In this document: positions 91 to 28,466 of the stretch, in pieces
Position numbering within the stretch: position 1 is the stretch's first letter
Layout: every line of letters begins with the position of its first letter
Source of the DNA: Escherichia coli
GTDB taxonomy: Bacteria; Pseudomonadota; Gammaproteobacteria; Enterobacterales; Enterobacteriaceae
Length of the DNA stretch: 64,000 nt
Strand: one strand, 5' to 3'
NCBI RefSeq assembly: GCF_003334765.1
Contig: NZ_QOWT01000014.1
Program-made: the position numbers and the translations under genes
The notes under the pieces: generated by a model
What the model was told of the DNA's origin: nothing
Databases searched by the model: none
Seen by the model: the letters and a program-made list of their open reading frames with translations, nothing else

Positions 91-948
91 TCAGCCTAAA
101 ACTGCCAGTTTTTCGAGCGTTTCGAAGCCGTAACGCTGTAAAACGGGCAATAATTGTTCAGCTCCTGGCGTCATTGCCATACAAAAGGCAATATTCGCAT
201 CGGCAGATTTTGCATCCGGGGCTTCATGTTCTAACAACCAGGCCGTTCGGCGAGCAATCGCTGCGCCAGAATCCACCAGCCGGGTTCCCTCTGGCAGCAC
301 TTGTAACAGTTCTTCTTGTAGTAGAGGGAAATGGGTGCAACCCAATACAACGGTATCTGGCGGCTCTTTCATTCTTAACCACGGGCGTAGGATACGTTTT
401 AGTGCATCCAGAGAAACATCTTCGCCATGTAGCTTCGCTTCAGCCAACTCAACCATCTCTGCCGAGCCCAGCATTTCTATCTGGCATTCATTAGCGAAAC
501 GCGCGATCAGCTCATGAGTATAAGAACGTTTAATTGTTCCGCGGGTTGCCAGTAATCCGACAATGCCATTTGCCGTCAGACGTGCAGCAGGTTTAATCGC
601 CGGCACGACACCAACAACCGGGAAGTCGAACTTTTCGCGTAATGCAGGAAGTGAAACGGTACTGGCAGTGTTGCAAGCGACCACAGCCAGCGCAAGGGGA
701 TAACGTTCTTGCACCGCGGTGACAATTGCCACCACTCGCTCAACAATAAACGCTTCGCTTTTTTCGCCATACGGGAAAGCGACGTTATCGAAAGCATAAA
801 TGTAATGGAGATCCGGTAAGAGATGCCGGATCTCGTCATAGACCGACAACCCACCGACGCCGGAGTCAAACACCAGCACGGTGGGACGTGGTTCAGAAGG
901 TGTAGCTGCCAGACAAGGTGTATTCCCGTCCTGCAGTTTGGTAGCCAT
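91..948 (-). CDS. murI: glutamate racemase
   Basis: ORF 91..960 translation recognised as MurI ([40 protein letters not shown]...); start set to the MATKL Met, giving 285 aa. Confidence 0.93.
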
Positions 949-12680: not shown

Positions 12681-12907
12681 AACGTAGGCCGGATAAGGCG
12701 CTCGCGCCGCATCCGGCGCTGTTGCCAAACTCCAGTGCCGCAATAATGTCGGATGCGATGCTTGCGCATCTTATCCGACCTACAGTGACTCAAACGATGC
12801 CCAACCGTAGGCCGGATAAGGCGCTCGCGCCGCATCCGGCACTGTTGCCAAACTCCAGTGCCGCAATAATGTCGGATGCGATACTTGCGCATCTTATCCG
12901 ACCTACA
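12681..12907. repeat. tandem duplication (about 123 bp unit, 2 copies) of a BIME made of two inverted REP palindromes
   Basis: Unit GTAGGCCGGATAAGGCGCTCGCGCCGCATCCGGC...GCCGCAATAATGTCGGATGCGATGCTTGCGCATCTTATCCGACCTACA occurs twice (from about 12684 and 12807), with only single-base differences visible. Confidence 0.9.
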
Positions 12908-17935: not shown

Positions 17936-18787
17936 ATGTATCACGACGTCAGCTATCTGCTCTCCCGCCTGATCAACGGCCCGCTGTCCCTGCGCCAGAT
18001 TTACTTTGCCAGCAGTAACGGCCCGGTGCCCGATCTTGCGTATCAGGTCGATTTTCCACGGCTGGAAATTGTGCTGGAAGGTGAGTTTGTTGATACCGGC
18101 GCTGGAGCAACGTTAGTTCCCGGCGATGTGCTGTACGTTCCTGCTGGTGGCTGGAATTTTCCACAATGGCAAGCCCCCGCTACTACCTTTAGCGTGCTGT
18201 TTGGCAAACAGCAACTCGGCTTCAGCGTCGTGCAATGGGATGGCAAACAATATCAAAATCTGGCGAAGCAACACGTCGCCCGACGCGGCCCACGCATAGG
18301 TTCTTTTCTGCTACAAACGCTCAATGAAATGCAAATGCAGCCGCAGGAGCAGCAAACGGCAAGGCTTATCGTCGCCAGCCTGCTTAGCCACTGCCGCGAT
18401 TTGCTTGGCAGCCAAATCCAGACCGCCTCACGCAGCCAGGCACTATTTGAAGCTATTCGCGATTATATCGACGAACGCTATGCCTCCGCGCTTACCCGCG
18501 AATCTGTTGCACAGGCGTTTTATATTTCGCCAAATTACCTCTCGCACCTGTTTCAAAAAACGGGGGCCATTGGTTTTAACGAATACCTGAATCACACGCG
18601 ACTGGAGCACGCTAAGACGTTATTGAAAGGCTATGACCTGAAGGTAAAAGAAGTGGCGCACGCCTGCGGCTTTGTCGACAGCAACTACTTCTGCCGTCTG
18701 TTTCGTAAAAACACCGAACGCTCGCCGTCGGAATATCGCCGGCAGTACCACAGCCAACTGACAGAAAAACCGACTACTCCAGAATAA
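17936..18787 (+). CDS. yijO: AraC-family transcriptional regulator of unknown target
   Basis: 283 aa ORF with a C-terminal AraC-type HTH (YISPNYLSHLFQK ... YFCRLFRK); position matches K-12 yijO. Confidence 0.85.
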   Translation: MYHDVSYLLSRLINGPLSLRQIYFASSNGPVPDLAYQVDFPRLEIVLEGEFVDTGAGATLVPGDVLYVPAGGWNFPQWQAPATTFSVLFGKQQLGFSVVQWDGKQYQNLAKQHVARRGPRIGSFLLQTLNEMQMQPQEQQTARLIVASLLSHCRDLLGSQIQTASRSQALFEAIRDYIDERYASALTRESVAQAFYISPNYLSHLFQKTGAIGFNEYLNHTRLEHAKTLLKGYDLKVKEVAHACGFVDSNYFCRLFRKNTERSPSEYRRQYHSQLTEKPTTPE

Positions 18788-19115
18788 GATGGGTTTGCTG
18801 CGGCGCAGAAAGCACTTTGCGCACCGCGCTCATTACCCGCTGCGGCTCACGCAGGAATGCGTAGATGCTGCATTGCACATAGCGGCAATGTTCAAATCGC
18901 TCGGCACCGGCAAGCTCGATATCCGTAATCAACAGAGCAACATCCGCCCGGCGGATATCCTCATCCGCTAAACGATTCTCCGTTCCCAGCGCGCCCTGAG
19001 TTTCAATGCTGACTCCCCACTTCTCTAACAGGCACAACTTTTCCAGCCGTTCCGCCGCCATATAAGTATGCGCCACGCCGCTTACGCAGGCGGTTACTGC
19101 CACCAGGTATGCCAT
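18774..19115 (-). CDS. frwD: PTS fructose-like EIIB component 2
   Basis: Start at MAYLVAVTACVSGVAHTYMAAE gives 113 aa; fructose-type IIB phospho-Cys motif (ACxSGVAHT). The 3' end overlaps the yijO 3' end by 14 bp. Confidence 0.88.
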   Translation of the reverse strand: MAYLVAVTACVSGVAHTYMAAERLEKLCLLEKWGVSIETQGALGTENRLADEDIRRADVALLITDIELAGAERFEHCRYVQCSIYAFLREPQRVMSAVRKVLSAPQQTHLILE

Positions 19116-19116
19116 T

Positions 19117-19995
19117 TTAACCTCCCACGGTAACCTGAAGTCCGGCCCGTTCTGCCATTTCGCGCATCGTTGCCACATCAGCTGACGACGGCGCAGGCAC
19201 CTCTTTCATCGACCATGTTTTCCCCAGCAGGCGGTATTTCGGTTCGCCGTACTGATGAAACGGTAACAGATGGATCTGCCTGATATTCAGCGGGATCAGT
19301 ACATCCAGCGCCTGCTGCATATTCTCCCGGCTGAGCGTGAAACCAGGGATCAGCGGTAAACGCGGGATCACGTTGACGCCCTCACTCACCAGCAAACGCA
19401 GATTCTCCAGCACGCGTGGCAGGTTCATCTTCACCACATCCCGCGCCTGAGTCGCGTCCATAATTTTTAAATCGAACAACACTTCATCGCACAATTTCGC
19501 CAGCGGTAATAGCTTGCTGGCTGGTGCGTCTCCGGCAGTTTCAATGGCGCATGACACACCCCACAGCCGCAGTCGCTGTAAAAAACGGGTAGCAAACTCC
19601 GCCTGCATTAACACTTCGCCGCCAGAAAGCGTGACGCCGCCGCCGGACGTGCGAAAGAAAATGTCATCTTTCATCACTTCCCGTTCCAGAGCGTCAAGGC
19701 TGATATCGCGACCAATCCGTTCAAACGCCCCGGAGGGGCATTCATCCGCATCACGCAAACATTTCGCACAGTGCAGACATTTCGCCTCTCTGCGTACCGT
19801 CTGGATTTTGCCGGAGATCGACTCCGGATTAGCACACCACGGGCAAAGATGCGGACAGCCTTTAAAAAAGACCACCGTACGAATGCCCTCGCCGTCATTC
19901 AGTGAATAACGCTGAATGTTGAAAATGCGCGCCACATCATCGCGGCGCGTTTCCACAACGTTACAGCTGATGCGCTGTCCGGCGGATGATGTCAT
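19117..19995 (-). CDS. pflC: glycyl-radical enzyme activating enzyme (radical SAM)
   Basis: Start at MTSSAGQ gives 292 aa; radical-SAM CPHLCPWC motif plus a second Cys cluster CLHCAKCLRDADECP. Confidence 0.9.
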   Translation of the reverse strand: MTSSAGQRISCNVVETRRDDVARIFNIQRYSLNDGEGIRTVVFFKGCPHLCPWCANPESISGKIQTVRREAKCLHCAKCLRDADECPSGAFERIGRDISLDALEREVMKDDIFFRTSGGGVTLSGGEVLMQAEFATRFLQRLRLWGVSCAIETAGDAPASKLLPLAKLCDEVLFDLKIMDATQARDVVKMNLPRVLENLRLLVSEGVNVIPRLPLIPGFTLSRENMQQALDVLIPLNIRQIHLLPFHQYGEPKYRLLGKTWSMKEVPAPSSADVATMREMAERAGLQVTVGG

Positions 19996-22258
19996 CCTGG
20001 ATCTCCTTCGACAGTTCGACAAAGAAGGCGCTGTATCCGGCAACGCGCACCACCAGCCCGGCATAATCTTGTGGGCGCTGTTGCGCTTCCCGCAACGTGT
20101 CGGCGTTCACCACGTTAAACTGAATATGTTGTAACTTAAGCTGGGTAAACGCCCGTAAGAAGTCGGCCAGTTTGCGTAATCCTGCTTCACCTTCCAGGGT
20201 CGCCGGAGTGAATTTCACGTTCAGCAACGTACCGTTAGACAGCAGCGTGTTATCGAGCTTACTGACTGACTTCAGTACCGCTGTTGGCCCTTGTGCGTCC
20301 TGGCCCAGCATGGGTGACAAGCCGCCGTCTGCCAGCTGTTCTCCGGCAAAACGACCGTCTGGCGTCGCGCCAACCACCGATCCCAACGGGACGTGAGCAG
20401 AAACGGTATACGATCCCGGCGTGAAGTAGCCGCCGCGCGGGTTCTGGTATTTTTCCACTTCTTTGCAGTAGTGGCGCAACAGTTCGGCGCTGATGTTATC
20501 CACCTCGTCGATATCGTTACCGTATTTCTCGAAGCGGTTAATTAAGCGAGCGCGGACTTTTTCGCCTTCTGGCGTTGCGAAGTTGGCTTTTAATACCGAC
20601 AGCAATTCGTCAAAACTTAAACGCTGTTGCTCAAAAACCATCCCTTTCAACGCATGGAGAGAATCGCTCAGGTTGGCGATACCGATCCCCTGTACGCCGG
20701 AGAAGTTATAACGCGCGCCGCCATCGGTAATATCGCGGCCTTTTTCCAGACAATCGCTGATAAACGATGAGAGCAGCGGTACAGGTGCCCAGTCGCGATG
20801 GCCGATATCACAAATATTGCTGCCCTCAACCATCAGGGTGATGTAGTGGCTGATCTTGGCGCGGATCTGCTCCAGTAAACCTTCATAAGTCAGCGCAGCA
20901 TTGCCTTCATTTTCATGCAGGCAGATTTCCATCACTTTCAGCAGATTAAACATCGCGATGTCATGCAAGCCGTAGGTTCTGCCGGGAATAGATAATTCCA
21001 CACAGCCCACTACGGAATAGTCGCGCGCATCTTCCAGCGAAACGCCACGGTTGAGGAACGCTGGCACCACCACTTCATCGTTAAATATTTGCGGAATACC
21101 GGTGCCGAAGCGAATGGTTTCGGCGGTTTTCATCAGGAACGGCGTGTCGATCAAGGCGTTAGTGCGCACGCCGAGGTTCGGTTGCGGTAATTGCACGCTT
21201 TGATAGGCGTCAAGGCAAAGGAACGAAAGCACGTTCACCGCGCTACGTCCGTTCTCGGTTAACCCGCCGAGCAGTGCGGTATAGCCGGTCGGGAAACCGG
21301 CGAAATAACGCGCGCTACTGGTGGAGCGCAACAGCACGATGTCGTTGCATTTCACCCATAAAGATTCGAGCAGTTCTTTCAGGAACGCCGCATCTTCGCC
21401 CTGGGTTAATGATGTCTGATAGAACGGCAACATATACTGGTCGAAGCGCCCCAACGATAGCGAACTGGCGTTGGATTCGTATTGCAGAATGATGTTCATG
21501 TACCAGAATAACTGGCACGCCTGCCAGAACGTCTGCGGCTTATGTTGCGCGTTATGGCGGGAGATCTCTGCAATAGTCAGCAGCTCTTCGCGACGCTGGG
21601 CATCTGTGCAGTTTGCCGCCATCGTTTCCGCCAGTTCGGCGTAACGCAAAATGTGTTTCTGCGAGGCTTCCAGCAGTAACAACGCGGCCTGATAAAAGTG
21701 ATTCTCCGGCTGTTGCTGACAATGTTGCTGCATCTGTGCCACCAGCTCACCCAGCCCGTGATTCAACAGGCGTGGGTAATCAATAATAATGTGCCCCTGG
21801 CCTTTATCCGTCTGGTTGATGCTGAAAATCTGCGTGTTGGTCGCGGCTTTTACTTCATCTGTCATCTGCCCGTTGATGAAATCTTTCATCGAACGTTTTT
21901 CCCAGTACGGGAACAACTCTTCACGGTAGATACGTTTATCTTCTTCGCTGATAGCAAAGCGGTCCTGCGGACGCGTCGGGAATTGATCCAGCTCTTTCAG
22001 CAGCCAGTAAGGGTCCATTTCCGGCGACATAATCCCGGCGCGCGGTTTTACGGTGCGGTTACCGGCAATCAGTTCTTCATCACGAATCGAAATTTCAACA
22101 TGTTCAAGGATATACGCTGTTGCTTTCGCCCGGCGCAATATCACCGGTTCGCCTTCGGTTTGCCGATGGCTGGCGGTATAAAGCAGCGCCCGCTCCAGCG
22201 AGATTTCACGGGTATTGGCAAACAGTGCAGTTTTGAGGCGAGAGATACGATTCGTCAT
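19961..22258 (-). CDS. pflD: glycyl radical enzyme (annotated formate acetyltransferase 2; true activity unassigned)
   Basis: 765 aa ORF with C-terminal glycyl radical motif RVAGYSA and active-site region VVGCVELSIPG. Confidence 0.9.
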   Translation of the reverse strand: MTNRISRLKTALFANTREISLERALLYTASHRQTEGEPVILRRAKATAYILEHVEISIRDEELIAGNRTVKPRAGIMSPEMDPYWLLKELDQFPTRPQDRFAISEEDKRIYREELFPYWEKRSMKDFINGQMTDEVKAATNTQIFSINQTDKGQGHIIIDYPRLLNHGLGELVAQMQQHCQQQPENHFYQAALLLLEASQKHILRYAELAETMAANCTDAQRREELLTIAEISRHNAQHKPQTFWQACQLFWYMNIILQYESNASSLSLGRFDQYMLPFYQTSLTQGEDAAFLKELLESLWVKCNDIVLLRSTSSARYFAGFPTGYTALLGGLTENGRSAVNVLSFLCLDAYQSVQLPQPNLGVRTNALIDTPFLMKTAETIRFGTGIPQIFNDEVVVPAFLNRGVSLEDARDYSVVGCVELSIPGRTYGLHDIAMFNLLKVMEICLHENEGNAALTYEGLLEQIRAKISHYITLMVEGSNICDIGHRDWAPVPLLSSFISDCLEKGRDITDGGARYNFSGVQGIGIANLSDSLHALKGMVFEQQRLSFDELLSVLKANFATPEGEKVRARLINRFEKYGNDIDEVDNISAELLRHYCKEVEKYQNPRGGYFTPGSYTVSAHVPLGSVVGATPDGRFAGEQLADGGLSPMLGQDAQGPTAVLKSVSKLDNTLLSNGTLLNVKFTPATLEGEAGLRKLADFLRAFTQLKLQHIQFNVVNADTLREAQQRPQDYAGLVVRVAGYSAFFVELSKEIQDDIIRRTAHQL

Positions 22259-22308: not shown

Positions 22309-22629
22309 TTAAGCGGTTTGCGCCAGGTGAGCTTCAATTTTGCTCATAATGGCGTCAGCACGTTTTACTGCATCGCTGATGTTGACGCGCACGATGGTCT
22401 TGCCAGCAAAACGCTCTTCAAACTTGATGCCGATATCTTTGGTCAGAATCACCATATCAGCGCTCGCCACATCTTCCGCAGTCAGTTCATTTTCCAGACC
22501 AATTGACCCCTGGGTTTCTACTTTCACTTCCCAGCCTTTCGCTTTCGCGGCACTTTCCAGCGCCTCTGCTGCCATATAGGTATGGGCAACACCTGAAGGA
22601 CATGCGGTTACTGCAATAATTTTCGTCAT
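22309..22629 (-). CDS. frwB: PTS fructose-like EIIB component 1
   Basis: 106 aa ORF with MTKIIAVTACPSGVAHTYMAAE (IIB-Fru-type phospho-Cys motif). Confidence 0.9.
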   Translation of the reverse strand: MTKIIAVTACPSGVAHTYMAAEALESAAKAKGWEVKVETQGSIGLENELTAEDVASADMVILTKDIGIKFEERFAGKTIVRVNISDAVKRADAIMSKIEAHLAQTA

Positions 22630-22643
22630 GGCTCGTTCCTCAA

Positions 22644-23723
22644 TTAATTAATTTCAAAATCCAAATCCAGGTCGTCTTCTTTTTCATCAGTCGAAGACCC
22701 ATTTTTACGCGCCAGACTTTTCAGCACGTTCACACAAACAGCCGTCACCACTGCTCCGACAGCCACTGCTGCGATATAACCCAGCTTGCCTTCAACCACC
22801 GGCAGCACAATCAGACCACCCCAGCCTGCATAGCACTGCGCACCGACCAGCGCCGCAGTTACTGCACCACAAACTGAACCGACCATGATGGAAGGAATGA
22901 CACGCAGCGGATCGGCAGCGGCGAAAGGAATCGCCCCTTCAGTAACGCCAACACAGCCCATCACCAGTGCCGCTTTGCCGGTTTCGCGCTCTTCTGCGGA
23001 GAAATTTTTACGACCAATCAGCGTCGCCAGCCCCATCCCCAGCGGCGGGATACAAATACCCACGGCAGCGATGGCCACCACGGTATAAACACCCTGAGCA
23101 ACGCAAATCAGCATGAAGGCATAGGCCACTTTGTTAACCGGACCGCCCATATCGAACGCCAGCATCAGACCCATGATCACCGCCAGCATAACAATGCTGC
23201 CCTGCTGCATCCCCTGAAGCCACTGAGTCAGGCTGTTGGTCAACGCCCCTACAGGCTCGCCCAAGCCCCACATCATGATGCCTGCGGTAATCAGTGTGCC
23301 GACGATAGGAATAATGAAGATAGGCATCACCGAGCGCAGAACTTTATGCACCGGAATTTTCTTCAGGTAATGCACCACGATGCCGCCGATAATCCCGGCG
23401 ATCAGTGCACCAAAGAAGCCCGCACCAAAGCTGTTACCAACCCAGGCACCGATAGCGCACGGAGCCAGCGCAGAACGCTCTGCAATGGAATAACCGATGT
23501 ACGCTGCGAGGAAAGGCACCATCAGCGTCAAGCCCGCAACGCCGATATCAAACAGTTTTTTCAGATTTGGATCGGCTACGGCATCCGGCACTGCGCCTTT
23601 GCCATACAACATGACGGAAACCGCCAGCAAAATACCGCCCGATACCACGAAGGGAATCATGTGTGAAACGCCCGTCATTAAATGCTGACGGGTATTTTTC
23701 AGGATCTGCACCAACTCATTCAT
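22644..23723 (-). CDS. frwC: PTS fructose-like EIIC permease
   Basis: 359 aa polytopic membrane ORF; EIIC-Fru family glycine-rich loops. Confidence 0.9.
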   Translation of the reverse strand: MNELVQILKNTRQHLMTGVSHMIPFVVSGGILLAVSVMLYGKGAVPDAVADPNLKKLFDIGVAGLTLMVPFLAAYIGYSIAERSALAPCAIGAWVGNSFGAGFFGALIAGIIGGIVVHYLKKIPVHKVLRSVMPIFIIPIVGTLITAGIMMWGLGEPVGALTNSLTQWLQGMQQGSIVMLAVIMGLMLAFDMGGPVNKVAYAFMLICVAQGVYTVVAIAAVGICIPPLGMGLATLIGRKNFSAEERETGKAALVMGCVGVTEGAIPFAAADPLRVIPSIMVGSVCGAVTAALVGAQCYAGWGGLIVLPVVEGKLGYIAAVAVGAVVTAVCVNVLKSLARKNGSSTDEKEDDLDLDFEIN

Positions 23724-24031
23724 AAGCTGCTCCCGGGCTTGCGAAAGCCCATGTCCATATTTTTGATGGAGGAAACAATAGGCAATCGCAGGCGGAGCAA
23801 ACAGTGGATAAAAAGGCCATTTACTGGACTTTTGTAATATCAGTACAAAAATGCGATCCGCCTCATAACTTGCGATAAACCGGAAGCATGCCGCAAAACA
23901 GCGTCTTGTGAGACGCGTCGCAAATTGACGGTTACATTACATTTGTCCAGCTTTTGGCAGATTTGTCACATGGCAGGCCGTTGCCGTGCGCTCTTATCCT
24001 GTAAACAGAAAACCGTACCGGGAGAGAGGCA

Positions 24032-26533
24032 ATGGCCCTGATTGTGGAATTTATTTGTGAGCTACCTAACGGCGTACATGCGCGTCCGGCAAGCCACGTT
24101 GAAACGCTGTGTAATACTTTTTCATCACAAATTGAGTGGCATAACCTGCGCACTGACCGCAAGGGCAACGCCAAAAGCGCCCTTGCGCTGATTGGCACCG
24201 ATACGCTGGCGGGCGATAACTGCCAGTTACTGATTTCCGGGGCCGACGAACAGGAAGCGCACCAGCGTTTAAGCCAATGGCTGCGCGATGAATTCCCCCA
24301 CTGCGATGCGCCGCTGGCGGAAGTTAAATCTGACGAACTGGAACCACTGCCGGTTTCACTGACCAATCTGAATCCGCAAATTATCCGCGCCCGCACCGTG
24401 TGCAGCGGTAGTGCAGGCGGCATTCTGACGCCGATCTCTTCTTTAGATCTCAATGCGCTGGGTAATCTTCCCGCAGCCAAAGGCGTTGACGCCGAGCAAT
24501 CCGCACTGGAAAACGGCCTGACGCTGGTACTGAAAAACATTGAGTTTCGTCTGCTGGATAGCGACGGTGCTACCAGCGCGATTCTGGAAGCTCACCGATC
24601 CCTGGCTGGCGATACTTCCCTGCGCGAACATTTACTGGCAGGCGTCAGCGCCGGATTAAGCTGCGCCGAAGCAATTGTTGCCAGCGCGAATCACTTTTGC
24701 GAAGAGTTTTCCCGTTCCAGCAGCAGCTACCTGCAAGAACGTGCCCTGGACGTACGCGACGTCTGCTTCCAGTTACTCCAGCAAATCTACGGTGAGCAAC
24801 GCTTCCCGGCACCGGGCAAACTGACGCAGCCCGCCATTTGTATGGCTGATGAACTGACCCCCAGCCAGTTCCTCGAACTGGATAAAAATCACCTCAAAGG
24901 ATTGTTGCTCAAAAGCGGCGGCACCACCTCACATACGGTGATCCTTGCCCGTTCGTTCAACATTCCAACGCTGGTTGGTGTGGATATTGATGCCCTTACT
25001 CCGTGGCAGCAACAAACGATTTATATCGACGGCAACGCCGGGGCGATTGTGGTTGAGCCAGGGGAAGCCGTAGCTCGTTATTATCAGCAAGAAGCCCGCG
25101 TACAGGACGCCCTGCGTGAGCAACAGCGTGTCTGGCTGACCCAACAAGCCCGTACCGCTGACGGTATCCGCATTGAAATTGCCGCTAACATCGCTCACTC
25201 CGTGGAAGCGCAGGCCGCATTCGGCAATGGTGCGGAAGGCGTTGGTTTGTTCCGCACTGAAATGCTCTATATGGATCGCACCAGCGCACCGGGCGAAAGC
25301 GAGTTGTACAACATTTTTTGTCAGGCGCTGGAATCCGCCAACGGACGCAGCATTATTGTGCGCACTATGGACATTGGCGGCGACAAACCCGTTGATTATC
25401 TGAACATTCCCGCAGAGGCAAACCCGTTCCTCGGTTATCGCGCCGTGCGTATTTATGAAGAGTACGCGTCGTTGTTTACCACGCAGCTACGGTCGATCCT
25501 CCGCGCCTCCGCTCACGGCAGCCTGAAAATCATGATCCCGATGATCTCCTCAATGGAAGAGATCTTATGGGTGAAAGAAAAACTGGCGGAAGCCAAACAG
25601 CAACTACGTAACGAACACATTCCGTTTGATGAGAAAATCCAGCTCGGCATCATGCTGGAAGTGCCGTCGGTGATGTTCATCATCGATCAATGCTGCGAAG
25701 AGATTGATTTCTTTAGTATTGGTAGTAATGACCTGACGCAGTATCTGCTGGCGGTGGATCGCGATAACGCTAAGGTTACTCGTCACTACAACAGCCTGAA
25801 TCCGGCATTCTTGCGGGCGCTCGATTACGCCGTGCAAGCGGTGCATCGCCAGGGCAAATGGATTGGTCTGTGCGGTGAGCTGGGAGCGAAAGGTTCCGTG
25901 CTGCCGTTGCTGGTCGGCTTAGGGCTGGATGAACTCAGCATGAGCGCACCATCAATTCCGGCGGCGAAAGCTCGGATGGCGCAACTTGATAGCCGTGAGT
26001 GCCGCAAGTTGCTCAACCAGGCAATGGCCTGCCGTACTTCGCTGGAAGTGGAACACCTGCTGGCGCAATTCCGCATGACCCAACAAGACGCACCGCTGGT
26101 CACCGCCGAGTGCATCACACTGGAAAGCGACTGGCGCAGCAAAGAAGAAGTGCTCAAAGGCATGACCGATAACCTGCTGCTGGCGGGCCGCTGCCGCTAT
26201 CCGCGTAAACTGGAAGCCGACTTGTGGGCGCGCGAGGCCGTTTTCTCTACCGGTCTGGGCTTTAGTTTTGCCATTCCACACAGCAAATCAGAACACATTG
26301 AGCAATCCACCATCAGCGTGGCGCGTCTGCAAGCGCCGGTGCGCTGGGGCGATGATGAAGCGCAATTCATCATTATGTTAACCCTGAACAAACACGCTGC
26401 GGGCGATCAGCATATGCGCATTTTCTCGCGCCTCGCTCGCCGCATCATGCACGAAGAATTCCGTAACGCGCTGGTTAACGCCGCCTCTGCCGACGCTATC
26501 GCCAGCCTGCTGCAACATGAACTGGAACTGTAA
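24032..26533 (+). CDS. ptsA: multiphosphoryl transfer protein: HPr-like, Enzyme I-like and EIIA(Fru)-like domains
   Basis: 833 aa ORF: N-terminal HPr-like His motif (NGVHARPA), central PEP-utilising His motif ([13 protein letters not shown]) and EI TIM-barrel motifs, C-terminal EIIA motif (AIPHSKSEH). Confidence 0.9.
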
Positions 26534-26544
26534 AAGGAAACATC

Positions 26545-27207
26545 ATGGAACTGTATCTGGACACCGCTAACGTCGCAGAAGTCGAACGTCTGGCACGCAT
26601 ATTCCCCATTGCCGGGGTGACAACTAACCCGAGCATTATCGCTGCCAGCAAGGAGTCCATATGGGAAGTGCTGCCGCGTCTGCAAAAAGCGATTGGTGAT
26701 GAGGGCATTCTGTTTGCTCAGACCATGAGCCGCGACGCGCAGGGGATGGTGGAAGAAGCGAAGCGCCTGCGCGACGCTATTCCGGGTATTGTGGTGAAAA
26801 TCCCGGTGACTTCCGAAGGTCTGGCAGCAATTAAAATACTGAAAAAAGAGGGTATTACTACACTTGGCACTGCTGTATATAGCGCCGCACAAGGGTTATT
26901 AGCCGCACTGGCAGGGGCAAAATACGTTGCTCCGTATGTTAACCGCGTAGATGCCCAGGGCGGAGACGGCATTCGTACGGTTCAGGAGCTGCAAACGCTG
27001 TTAGAAATGCACGCGCCAGAAAGCATGGTGCTGGCAGCCAGCTTTAAAACGCCGCGTCAGGCGCTGGACTGTTTACTGGCAGGATGTGAATCCATCACCC
27101 TGCCCTTAGATGTAGCGCAACAAATGCTCAACACCCCTGCGGTAGAGTCAGCTATAGAGAAGTTCGAACACGACTGGAATGCCGCATTTGGCACTACTCA
27201 TCTCTAA
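26545..27207 (+). CDS. fsaB: fructose-6-phosphate aldolase 2 (transaldolase-like)
   Basis: 220 aa ORF recognised as FsaB/TalC ([32 protein letters not shown]...). Confidence 0.93.
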
Positions 27208-27217
27208 AGGAGCAATT

Positions 27218-28321
27218 ATGGACCGCATTATTCAATCACCGGGTAAATACATCCAGGGCGCTGATGTGATTAATCGTCTGGGCGAATACCTGAAGCCGCT
27301 GGCAGAACGCTGGTTAGTGGTGGGTGACAAATTTGTTTTAGGTTTTGCTCAATCCACTGTCGAGAAAAGCTTTAAAGATGCTGGACTGGTAGTAGAAATT
27401 GCGCCGTTTGGCGGTGAATGTTCGCAAAATGAGATCGACCGTCTGCGTGGCATCGCGGAGACTGCGCAGTGTGGCGCAATTCTCGGTATCGGTGGCGGAA
27501 AAACCCTCGATACTGCCAAAGCACTGGCACATTTCATGGGTGTTCCGGTAGCGATCGCACCGACTATCGCCTCTACCGATGCACCGTGCAGCGCATTGTC
27601 TGTTATCTACACCGATGAGGGTGAGTTTGACCGCTATCTGCTGTTGCCAAATAACCCGAATATGGTCATTGTCGACACCAAAATCGTCGCTGGCGCACCT
27701 GCACGTCTGTTAGCGGCGGGTATCGGCGATGCGCTGGCAACCTGGTTTGAAGCGCGTGCCTGCTCTCGTAGCGGCGCGACCACCATGGCGGGCGGCAAGT
27801 GCACCCAGGCTGCGCTGGCACTGGCTGAACTGTGCTACAACACCCTGCTGGAAGAAGGCGAAAAAGCGATGCTTGCTGCCGAACAGCATGTAGTGACTCC
27901 GGCGCTGGAGCGCGTGATTGAAGCGAACACCTATTTGAGCGGTGTTGGTTTTGAAAGTGGTGGTCTGGCTGCGGCGCACGCAGTGCATAACGGCCTGACC
28001 GCTATCCCGGACGCGCATCACTATTATCACGGTGAAAAAGTGGCATTCGGTACGCTGACGCAGCTGGTTCTGGAAAATGCGCCGGTGGAGGAAATCGAAA
28101 CCGTAGCTGCCCTTAGCCATGCGGTAGGTTTGCCAATAACTCTCGCTCAACTGGATATTAAAGAAGATGTCCCGGCGAAAATGCGAATTGTGGCAGAAGC
28201 GGCATGTGCAGAAGGTGAAACCATTCACAACATGCCTGGCGGCGCGACGCCAGATCAGGTTTACGCCGCTCTGCTGGTAGCCGACCAGTACGGTCAGCGT
28301 TTCCTGCAAGAGTGGGAATAA
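27218..28321 (+). CDS. gldA: glycerol dehydrogenase
   Basis: Start at [17 protein letters not shown] gives 367 aa; iron-containing alcohol dehydrogenase family. Confidence 0.93.
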
Positions 28322-28366
28322 CCTACTCCAAACTCCCGGCTTGTCCGGGAGTTTGAACGCAAAATT

Positions 28367-28466
28367 GCCTGATGCGCTACGCTTATCAGGCCTACGCAAT
28401 CTCTGCAATATATTGAATTTGCGTGCTTTTGTAGGCCGGATAAGGCGTTCACTCCGCATCCGGCAC
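28367..28466. repeat. RIP-type BIME: two inverted REP palindromes flanking a central AT-rich (IHF-site-like) core
   Basis: GCCTGATGCGCTACGCTTATCAGGCCTAC - GCAATCTCTGCAATATATTGAATTTGCGTGC - TTTTGTAGGCCGGATAAGGCGTTCACTCCGCATCCGGCA. Confidence 0.85.

Follow-up and report, generated by a model that had tools for sequence, protein, structure and literature searches.

The pflD gene of Escherichia coli bears the name of a pyruvate formate-lyase (PFL), and the question raised by its locus is whether the encoded glycyl radical enzyme (GRE) is suited to the chemistry that this name implies. Here we analysed a 64,000-nucleotide stretch of E. coli DNA (the window), in which an earlier note made from the sequence had read the active site of PflD as that of an eliminase. 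With high confidence we conclude that PflD is a glycyl-radical eliminase cleaving a C–O bond, and not a pyruvate formate-lyase. This identity had already been shown in a paper of 2024 and by crystallography, and the only correction to the earlier note is one of novelty, since structure 8yjo and the function had been published. The gene and the sites within it on which the argument turns are as follows.

19961..22258, minus strand: pflD, glycyl radical enzyme, 765 aa (open reading frame; identity to K-12; PDB 8yjo, 1741 bits; TIGR01774)
20996..21007, minus strand: Cys loop, codons of PflD G418-C419-V420-E421 (translation; aligned to PflB, glycerol dehydratase and propanediol dehydratase)
20033..20047, minus strand: Gly loop R738-V-A-G741-Y742 (motif search; G741 aligned with PflB G734)
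21791..21793, minus strand: PflD His156, at the PflB Arg176 position (alignment)

The PflD of the window is 100% identical to that of K-12 MG1655 (0 differences over 765 aa), and nucleotide identity to K-12 across the pflD region is 99.96–99.99%. PDB entry 8yjo, named “Probable dehydratase PflD”, is PflD itself; the E. coli protein of that entry and of Ma et al. has an identical sequence in the same gene context, with no difference from the window. [quoted passage not shown] The reverse complement of 20996..21007, GGCTGTGTGGAA, encodes G-C-V-E at residues 418–421 within the context DYSVVGCVELSIPGR, exactly at the nucleotides given in the earlier note, which had numbered the residues about 417..421. 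PflD contains ten cysteines (180, 217, 248, 304, 348, 419, 446, 483, 503 and 598), no two of which are adjacent, and hence no Cys-Cys pair anywhere in the protein. From the sequence, G741 is predicted to be the residue on which the glycyl radical is stored and C419 to be the thiyl-radical cysteine, and E421 is the glutamate of the CXE motif characteristic of eliminases.

The register of the Cys loop was examined by BLASTP, by a four-sequence MAFFT alignment and by a 138-sequence MAFFT alignment. In all three, PflD G418-C419-V420-E421 falls on PflB C418-C419-V-S (mature numbering), and the aligned loops are flanked by invariant D-Y and G anchors; the register is the same against TdcE. The K-12 pflB translation reads DYAIACCVSPMIVGK in this region, with the loop IACCVSPM, in agreement with the stretch ACCVSPM given in the earlier note. 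In PflB, it is Cys418 of the Cys418/Cys419 dyad that attacks pyruvate as a thiyl radical and afterwards bears the acetyl group (PMC9326890); the earlier note likewise has the first cysteine of that stretch carrying the acetyl group. In PflD this residue is Gly, and PflB Ser421 is replaced by Glu. The identification of GCVE as the active-site Cys loop would have failed had the segment aligned elsewhere or a dyad existed at another position in PflD; the three alignments place it on the loop, and the survey of cysteines found no such dyad.

The pyruvate pocket differs as well. PflB Arg176 and Arg435 hold the carboxylate of pyruvate (PMC10653868), and their positions are occupied by H156 and M436 in PflD, while TdcE retains both arginines. 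PflB and TdcE (PDB 1h16 and others) share with PflD the glycyl-radical fold, the RVxGY Gly loop and the radical-relay Cys419, but PflB has the C418-C419 dyad, R176/R435 and a Ser where the Glu of PflD stands, against G418, E421, H156 and M436 in PflD. PflD and PflB share 25% identity across an alignment of 543 residues, and against TIGR01255 (pyr_form_ly_1, the true PFL equivalog) PflD scores 121.9 bits, far below the cut-off of 994.2. The proposal that PflD is not a PFL, and that “formate acetyltransferase 2” is a misnomer, is therefore supported by the lack of equivalents of both arginines and by the TIGR01255 score.

The PflD loop belongs with those of the eliminases. Its G-C-x-E segment aligns with C433/E435 of glycerol dehydratase (GD) and C438/E440 of propanediol dehydratase (PD), and the CXE motif, present as C419-V420-E421, also aligns with that of a choline TMA-lyase (CutC) representative. 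GRE eliminases retain the CXE motif, in which the Glu is usually taken to act as catalytic base, and a partner His for this Glu has been described in trans-4-hydroxy-L-proline dehydratase (HypD) and GD (PMC7077986). The reading of a single Cys followed two residues on by Glu as the arrangement of glycyl-radical eliminases is in accord with these alignments and with the published motif. PflD has 2,313 relatives with E ≤ 1e-30. In 134 full-length relatives, each representing a cluster at 50% identity, the position of G418 is Gly in 127, that of C419 is Cys in 133 and that of E421 is Glu in 113; the complete G-C-x-E is found in 108 and C-C in none (0/134). G-C-x-E is a signature of the family, beyond what chance would give. 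A His occupies the position of PflD His156 in 109 of the 134 relatives, and in YbiW too. PflD scores 1356 bits against TIGR01774 (the PFL2-3 subfamily), above the cut-off of 678.2. When ten of the cluster representatives were compared with NCBIfam, an equivalog cut-off was passed by P0071 (CutC) only, and the others are uncharacterised PFL2-3 members. The nearest non-orthologous relative of PflD (P0002, 47% identity) lies on a 3.8 kb contig that carries just a GRE and an activase.

Similarity to proteins of known structure follows the same lines (GD 653 bits, PD 600, CutC 494, YbiW 480, PflB 117), with the bit score of PflD to GD about five times that to PflB. Among enzymes with both a solved structure and a characterised function, the nearest to PflD are B12-independent GD of Clostridium butyricum (PDB 1r8w) and PD (PDB 5i2a), whose loop IIGCVEP matches the VVGCVEL of PflD residue for residue. 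The chemical logic may also be shared, with abstraction of a hydrogen beside a hydroxyl, formation of a ketyl radical and expulsion of the neighbouring C–O group. GD and PD act on small unphosphorylated diols and expel hydroxide, so that they carry out a genuine dehydration with an aldehyde as product; in PflD, as judged from the substrate and product described in PMC12441222, the ring oxygen leaves, a methyl ketone is formed and no water is lost. YbiW of E. coli (PDB 8yjn, 8id7) has a GC(V/I)E Cys loop, the His at the PflB-R176 position and the Gly loop RVAGYSAFF, as does PflD, and has its own activase, ybiY. According to the account in PMC12441222 it gives the same product as PflD from the C2 epimer, 1,5-anhydroglucitol-6-phosphate, yet it is only 39% identical to PflD and stands further from it than does GD (480 versus 653 bits). 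CutC (P0071, loop MMGCVEP) and HypD (C434-V-E436, taken from PMC7077986) have CXE as in PflD, but cleave C–N, and C–OH with C–N oxidation, respectively; CutC has Asp at the position of His156. PflD falls below the equivalog cut-offs of both (CutC, 511 versus 1050 bits; HypD, 526 versus 1100).

A function for PflD has been published. As reported in PMC12441222, Ma et al. 2024 (JACS 146:26187) describe PflD as ring-opening 1,5-anhydromannitol-6-phosphate, made by the Frw phosphotransferase system (PTS), to 1-deoxyfructose-6-phosphate; the sugar or polyol phosphates that had been guessed as substrates match the function given in that account. Taking direct elimination in other GRE eliminases as a model, and considering how substrate and product are built, we propose the following mechanism. 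PflC and SAM would generate the radical on G741, which would be passed to C419 to give the thiyl; this would abstract the C2 hydrogen of the substrate, and transfer of the C2-OH proton to E421 would leave a ketyl radical. The C1–O5 ring bond would then break with a spin-centre shift, opening the ring, and the C1 radical would regain a hydrogen from C419 to yield the methyl ketone 1-deoxyfructose-6-phosphate. The net reaction would be an isomerisation, without loss of water. Since C2 of the substrate becomes the carbonyl, both epimers would give one product.

The genes surrounding pflD in the window are arranged as a module of order fsaB-ptsA / frwCB-pflDC-frwD / yijO.

17936..18787, plus strand: yijO, AraC-type regulator (convergent with frwD, 14 nt overlap)
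18774..19115, minus strand: frwD, PTS EIIB-type component (K-12 annotation / NCBIfam)
19117..19995, minus strand: pflC, radical-SAM activating enzyme, 292 aa (TIGR02494; motifs)
22309..22629, minus strand: frwB, PTS EIIB component
22644..23723, minus strand: frwC, PTS EIIC permease, fructose family
24032..26533, plus strand: ptsA (frwA), fused HPr-EI-EIIA phosphoryl-transfer protein (divergent from frwC)
26545..27207, plus strand: fsaB, fructose-6-phosphate aldolase 2
27218..28321, plus strand: gldA, L-1,2-propanediol/glycerol dehydrogenase (K-12 annotation mapped onto the window)

Immediately downstream of pflD, and overlapping its 3' end by 35 nt, pflC encodes a protein with CPHLCPWC (CX3CX2C) at residue 47 and a second cysteine cluster, CLHCAKC, at residue 73, which scores 262 bits against TIGR02494, above the cut-off of 174. 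An association with both a PTS and a fructose-6-phosphate (FSA) aldolase is apparent, as frwC, frwB, frwD and ptsA, together with fsaB-gldA, flank pflDC. The frw PTS, pflC, fsaB and gldA neighbours fit an anhydrohexitol pathway. FsaB is a candidate for cleaving the PflD product 1-deoxyfructose-6-phosphate, which would be expected to give glyceraldehyde-3-phosphate and hydroxyacetone, and GldA would be expected to reduce hydroxyacetone to 1,2-propanediol. YijO is a candidate regulator of the frw/pflDC module. At another locus (L008) the whole module lies in a different chromosomal neighbourhood, with a TAL_FSA gene adjoining it and an HTH_AraC gene at the position matching yijO. The paralogue fsaA adjoins ybiW-ybiY in a parallel arrangement, with no PTS genes beside ybiW in its gene context. 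In the divergent frwC/ptsA promoter region we observed a CRP-like site with one mismatch (23907..23922); the window contains two CRP-like matches against 1.8 expected by chance, and we therefore make no claim for CRP. A search of the frwC/ptsA spacer for FNR-like sites, allowing up to two mismatches, found none.

In sequence, PflD resembles the dehydratases of small diols more than it does YbiW, whose substrate is the C2 epimer of its own, and the gut is not known to contain 1,5-anhydromannitol in abundance. The frw/pflDC module might therefore serve a natural substrate that is different or broader, for example the phosphate of some other 1,5-anhydro or deoxy sugar brought in by the Frw PTS, although we consider this unlikely. 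Were such a reading true, the ability to open the ring would have evolved on two separate occasions among the eliminases.

It is very unlikely that the main physiological substrate is something else altogether, whether a small diol, as in GD and PD, or the phosphate of a different sugar or polyol supplied by a PTS. GD and PD (653 and 600 bits) are indeed nearer to PflD than its functional twin YbiW (480), the frw components are named simply “fructose-like”, and 1,5-anhydromannitol is termed a “non-physiological polyol” in the human context (PMC12441222). Yet the reported activity and growth phenotype concern anhydrohexitols, on the account given in that same source. The FSA aldolase, moreover, travels with the pflD module and also adjoins ybiW, and it suits a 1-deoxyketohexose-6-phosphate product rather than a C3 aldehyde. 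The position of pflD inside a PTS operon implies that its substrate should be phosphorylated, and no microcompartment or aldehyde dehydrogenase genes were found near pflD.

We give almost no credence to PflD being a genuine second PFL in which C419 alone, or another cysteine, transfers the acetyl group, as RefSeq/PGAP and NCBIfam naming and two papers would have it (PMC4072538, which repeats the assignment, and PMC9055928), because the acetyl-carrying Cys418 is Gly with no Cys-Cys pair to replace it, both pyruvate-binding arginines are substituted, the TIGR01255 score (122 versus 994) and the roughly fivefold greater bit score to GD point away from PFL, and the function described in PMC12441222 is a different one. 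PMC9055928 presents “formate acetyltransferase” specific activities for four E. coli paralogues including PflD, the PflD value being given in a figure only. We rejected these values as a refutation, as the text describes no anaerobic handling, activating enzyme or SAM, which makes the result uninterpretable for a glycyl radical enzyme.

With PflD recognized as a C–O-cleaving eliminase, the remaining issue is one of curation of names, the scientific point being settled. In copies from 2026, the K-12 RefSeq label of pflD, locus b3951, is “putative formate acetyltransferase 2”; the PGAP annotation of E. coli has the old PFL label in every record among the matches listed (5,426 matching genomes), and the NCBIfam equivalog NF007437 is still called “formate C-acetyltransferase”. 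Named PflD orthologues in Salmonella, Citrobacter, Enterobacter, Leclercia and Lelliottia carry the old label too. Experimental and modelling studies have been led astray by it into treating PflD and YbiW as additional PFLs (PMC9055928, PMC4072538), and metabolic models that assign pyruvate-to-formate flux to PflD are wrong on this point. On the published account as relayed in PMC12441222, PflD is instead the radical C–O lyase of an anaerobic pathway by which gut Enterobacteriaceae use 1,5-anhydrohexitols.

The reverse complement of 20996..21007 reads GGC TGT GTG GAA and encodes G418-C419-V420-E421 of PflD (context, DYSVVGCVELSIPGR), exactly where the earlier note had placed this motif. No two of the ten cysteines of PflD are adjacent, and its glycyl-radical motif is R738-V-A-G741-Y742. 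For comparison, PflB, TdcE and YbiW were translated from pflB, tdcE and ybiW of the K-12 record; the Cys loop of PflB, DYAIACCVSPMIVGK, contains the ACCVSPM stretch that the earlier note had given correctly. Pairwise BLASTP, a four-sequence MAFFT alignment and a 138-sequence MAFFT alignment gave one register, anchored by an invariant D-Y ahead of the loop and a G behind it. All three place PflD G418/C419/V420/E421 on C418/C419/V/S421 of PflB (mature numbering), identifying GCVE as the active-site Cys loop. In pyruvate formate-lyase (PFL) the radical passes from Gly734 to Cys419 to Cys418, whose thiyl radical begins pyruvate cleavage (PMC9326890); Cys418 is precisely the residue missing in PflD (G418).

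In the PFL–pyruvate structure, Arg176 and Arg435 hold the carboxylate (PMC10653868). At the aligned positions PflD has His156 and Met436, while its paralogue YbiW has His165 and Phe459. TdcE, a genuine 2-oxoacid formate-lyase, retains both Arg equivalents and the Cys-Cys dyad. The pyruvate site gives a second line of evidence, independent of the Cys loop.

A PDB sequence search with the PflD segment aligned VVGCVELSIPGRT with the loops of glycerol dehydratase (IIGCVEPQKPGKT, C433/E435) and propanediol dehydratase (IIGCVEPQVPGKT, C438/E440). P0071, a cluster representative above the NCBIfam CutC equivalog cut-off (1590 bits vs 1050), has MMGCVEP in the same columns. These likenesses bear out the suggestion that GCVE is the arrangement of glycyl-radical eliminases. 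A “CXE motif” is described as conserved among eliminases of the glycyl radical enzyme (GRE) family, its Glu being generally seen as the catalytic base making the ketyl radical and, in HypD, paired with a nearby His (PMC7077986). HMMER, run over the complete set of 1.84 billion cluster representatives, returned 2,313 PflD relatives at E ≤ 1e-30, and columns were counted in the 134 full-length proteins among the best 150 of these. Position 418 is G in 127/134, 419 is C in 133/134 and 421 is E in 113/134; His occupies PflD position 156 in 109, G-C-x-E is complete in 108, and none of the 134 has C-C at the loop columns. On these counts, G-C-x-E is a family signature and no accident.

The bit scores of PflD against solved structures were 653 for glycerol dehydratase, 600 for propanediol dehydratase, 526 for A. 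fulgidus PFL2, 494 for CutC, 480 for YbiW and 418 for HypD, but just 117 for PflB. It passes the TIGR01774 “formate C-acetyltransferase/glycerol dehydratase family” subfamily model (1356 bits, cut-off 678) and fails TIGR01255, the true PFL model (122 bits, cut-off 994). PflD thus lacks every PFL-defining feature tested and has every eliminase-class feature tested.

When ten diverse relatives were compared with NCBIfam, eight passed the generic PFL2-3 subfamily model alone and reached no equivalog cut-off; P0138 fell under even the PFL2-3 cut-off, and P0071 was CutC. It follows that GREs with a G-C-x-E loop and an uncharacterised function appear to make up most of the 50%-identity clusters near PflD. 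P0151, a 908-aa ENA protein (2020 bits, 96% identity to PflD), has a best local alignment spanning merely 69% of PflD and may be a duplication, fusion or assembly artefact.

The highest-scoring PDB entry, 8yjo (“Probable dehydratase PflD”), is the very same protein; YbiW has the entries 8yjn and 8id7. The passage of PMC12441222 citing Ma et al. 2024 states that a PTS phosphorylates 1,5-anhydroglucitol and 1,5-anhydromannitol, and that YbiW cleaves 1,5-AG6P and PflD 1,5-AM6P, both to 1-deoxyfructose-6-phosphate, in a glycyl-radical-dependent reaction; by this account, the substrates of the two enzymes are C2 epimers and their product is the same. The eliminase identity of PflD is already known, and this reading, as against PFL, is supported. 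PflD is nearer to the glycerol and propanediol dehydratases (653/600 bits) than to YbiW (480 bits; 39% identity), and the eliminase clade may have evolved ring opening on two separate occasions.

In 1,5-anhydrohexitol-6-P, C1 is a CH2 bonded to the ring oxygen and C2 bears a hydroxyl; in 1-deoxyfructose-6-P, C1 is a methyl and C2 a ketone. Substrate and product set the chemistry of PflD, and we infer the simplest route. G741• would generate C419-S•, which would abstract the C2 hydrogen; E421 would deprotonate the C2-OH to give a ketyl radical; C1–O5 cleavage would open the ring; and the C1 radical would regain hydrogen from C419. Both epimers would give one product because C2 turns into a carbonyl, and no water would be lost because the leaving group remains in the molecule, which would make “dehydratase” not strictly accurate either. 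So analysed, the reaction would be a ring-opening isomerisation. The proposed route matches direct elimination, the accepted mechanism of GRE eliminases (PMC7077986).

The surroundings of pflD fit the reported anhydrohexitol pathway.

Genes around pflD (coordinates, strand or orientation, product)
17936..18787, convergent with frwD: yijO, AraC-type regulator
18774..19115, minus: frwD, EIIB
19117..19995, minus: pflC, activase with the radical-SAM motif CPHLCPWC and a further Cys cluster
19961..22258, minus: pflD, 765 aa
22309..22629, minus: frwB, EIIB
22644..23723, minus: frwC, EIIC
24032..26533, divergent from frwC: ptsA, HPr-EI-EIIA fusion
26545..27207, divergent side, with ptsA: fsaB, fructose-6-P aldolase 2
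27218..28321, divergent side, with ptsA and fsaB: gldA, 1,2-propanediol/glycerol dehydrogenase

From this gene context, and reportedly in the 2024 work of Ma and colleagues, FsaB would split 1-deoxyfructose-6-P into glyceraldehyde-3-P and hydroxyacetone, and a GldA step would lead to 1,2-propanediol. The start of pflC lies 35 nt inside the pflD 3' end (19961..19995), an overlap suggesting that enzyme and activase are translationally coupled; frwD and yijO, which converge, share 14 nt at the 3' end of each gene (18774..18787). A CRP-like site at 23907..23922 (TGTGAGACGCGTCGCA, one mismatch to consensus) lies in the 308-bp frwC/ptsA divergent spacer and is not significant alone, the window total being 2 vs 1.8 expected by chance.

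In K-12, with ybiW at L003:5175-7607, the paralogous pair ybiW-ybiY adjoins the paralogous aldolase gene fsaA. An intact block, TAL_FSA–PtsA / EIIC–EIIB–GRE–activase–EIIB / AraC, with a GRE 91% identical to PflD, occupies L008:5033-14389; the assembly bears the label Edwardsiella tarda ATCC 23685. Different genes flank the block there, uvrC/pgsA-like at one end and ato-like at the other, and it lacks gldA. Both cases serve as natural replicates in favour of a functional link between GRE and aldolase, and the other chromosomal neighbourhood suggests that the module is transferred in one piece.

The window comes from the E. coli chromosome and is collinear with K-12 MG1655 4,166,375→4,102,253 (reverse strand). 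Identity is 99.94–99.99%, and the two sequences differ by 16 SNPs and a single length change of 123 bp; the PflD of the window matches K-12 PflD at every residue. The sole length difference in 64 kb falls in the ppc–argE intergenic region (12681..12907), where MG1655 is 123 bp longer; overlapping megablast pieces imply one tandem unit of ~123 bp fewer in the window, probably of REP/BIME type. A ~103-bp dispersed repeat, likely a REP-type element, has copies 88% identical to each other in the gldA/yijF (28363..28465) and yiiX/metJ (38201..38302) spacers.

Glycyl radical enzymes require anaerobic work, SAM and an activating enzyme. PMC9055928 treats YbiW, PflB, PflD and TdcE as “four formate acetyltransferases”, with specific activities from a pyruvate/CoA/FDH-coupled assay; its text mentions neither anaerobic work nor SAM nor an activating enzyme, and we reject this activity as proof of PFL function for PflD on that ground. 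PMC4072538 likewise counts ybiW and pflD as alternative PFLs, and the two papers measure the misnomer's spread. That “formate acetyltransferase 2” is a misnomer, as had been suspected, follows from the lack of a Cys-Cys dyad and of the pyruvate Arg pair, the failure against TIGR01255 and the different published function. K-12 RefSeq nevertheless labels PflD “putative formate acetyltransferase 2”; PGAP gives “formate C-acetyltransferase” among the matches listed, of 5,426 matching E. coli genomes; the NCBIfam equivalog NF007437 (June 2026 release) bears that name; and so do nearly all named orthologues in Salmonella, Citrobacter, Enterobacter, Leclercia and Lelliottia. The remaining issue is one of annotation, which is in need of correction.
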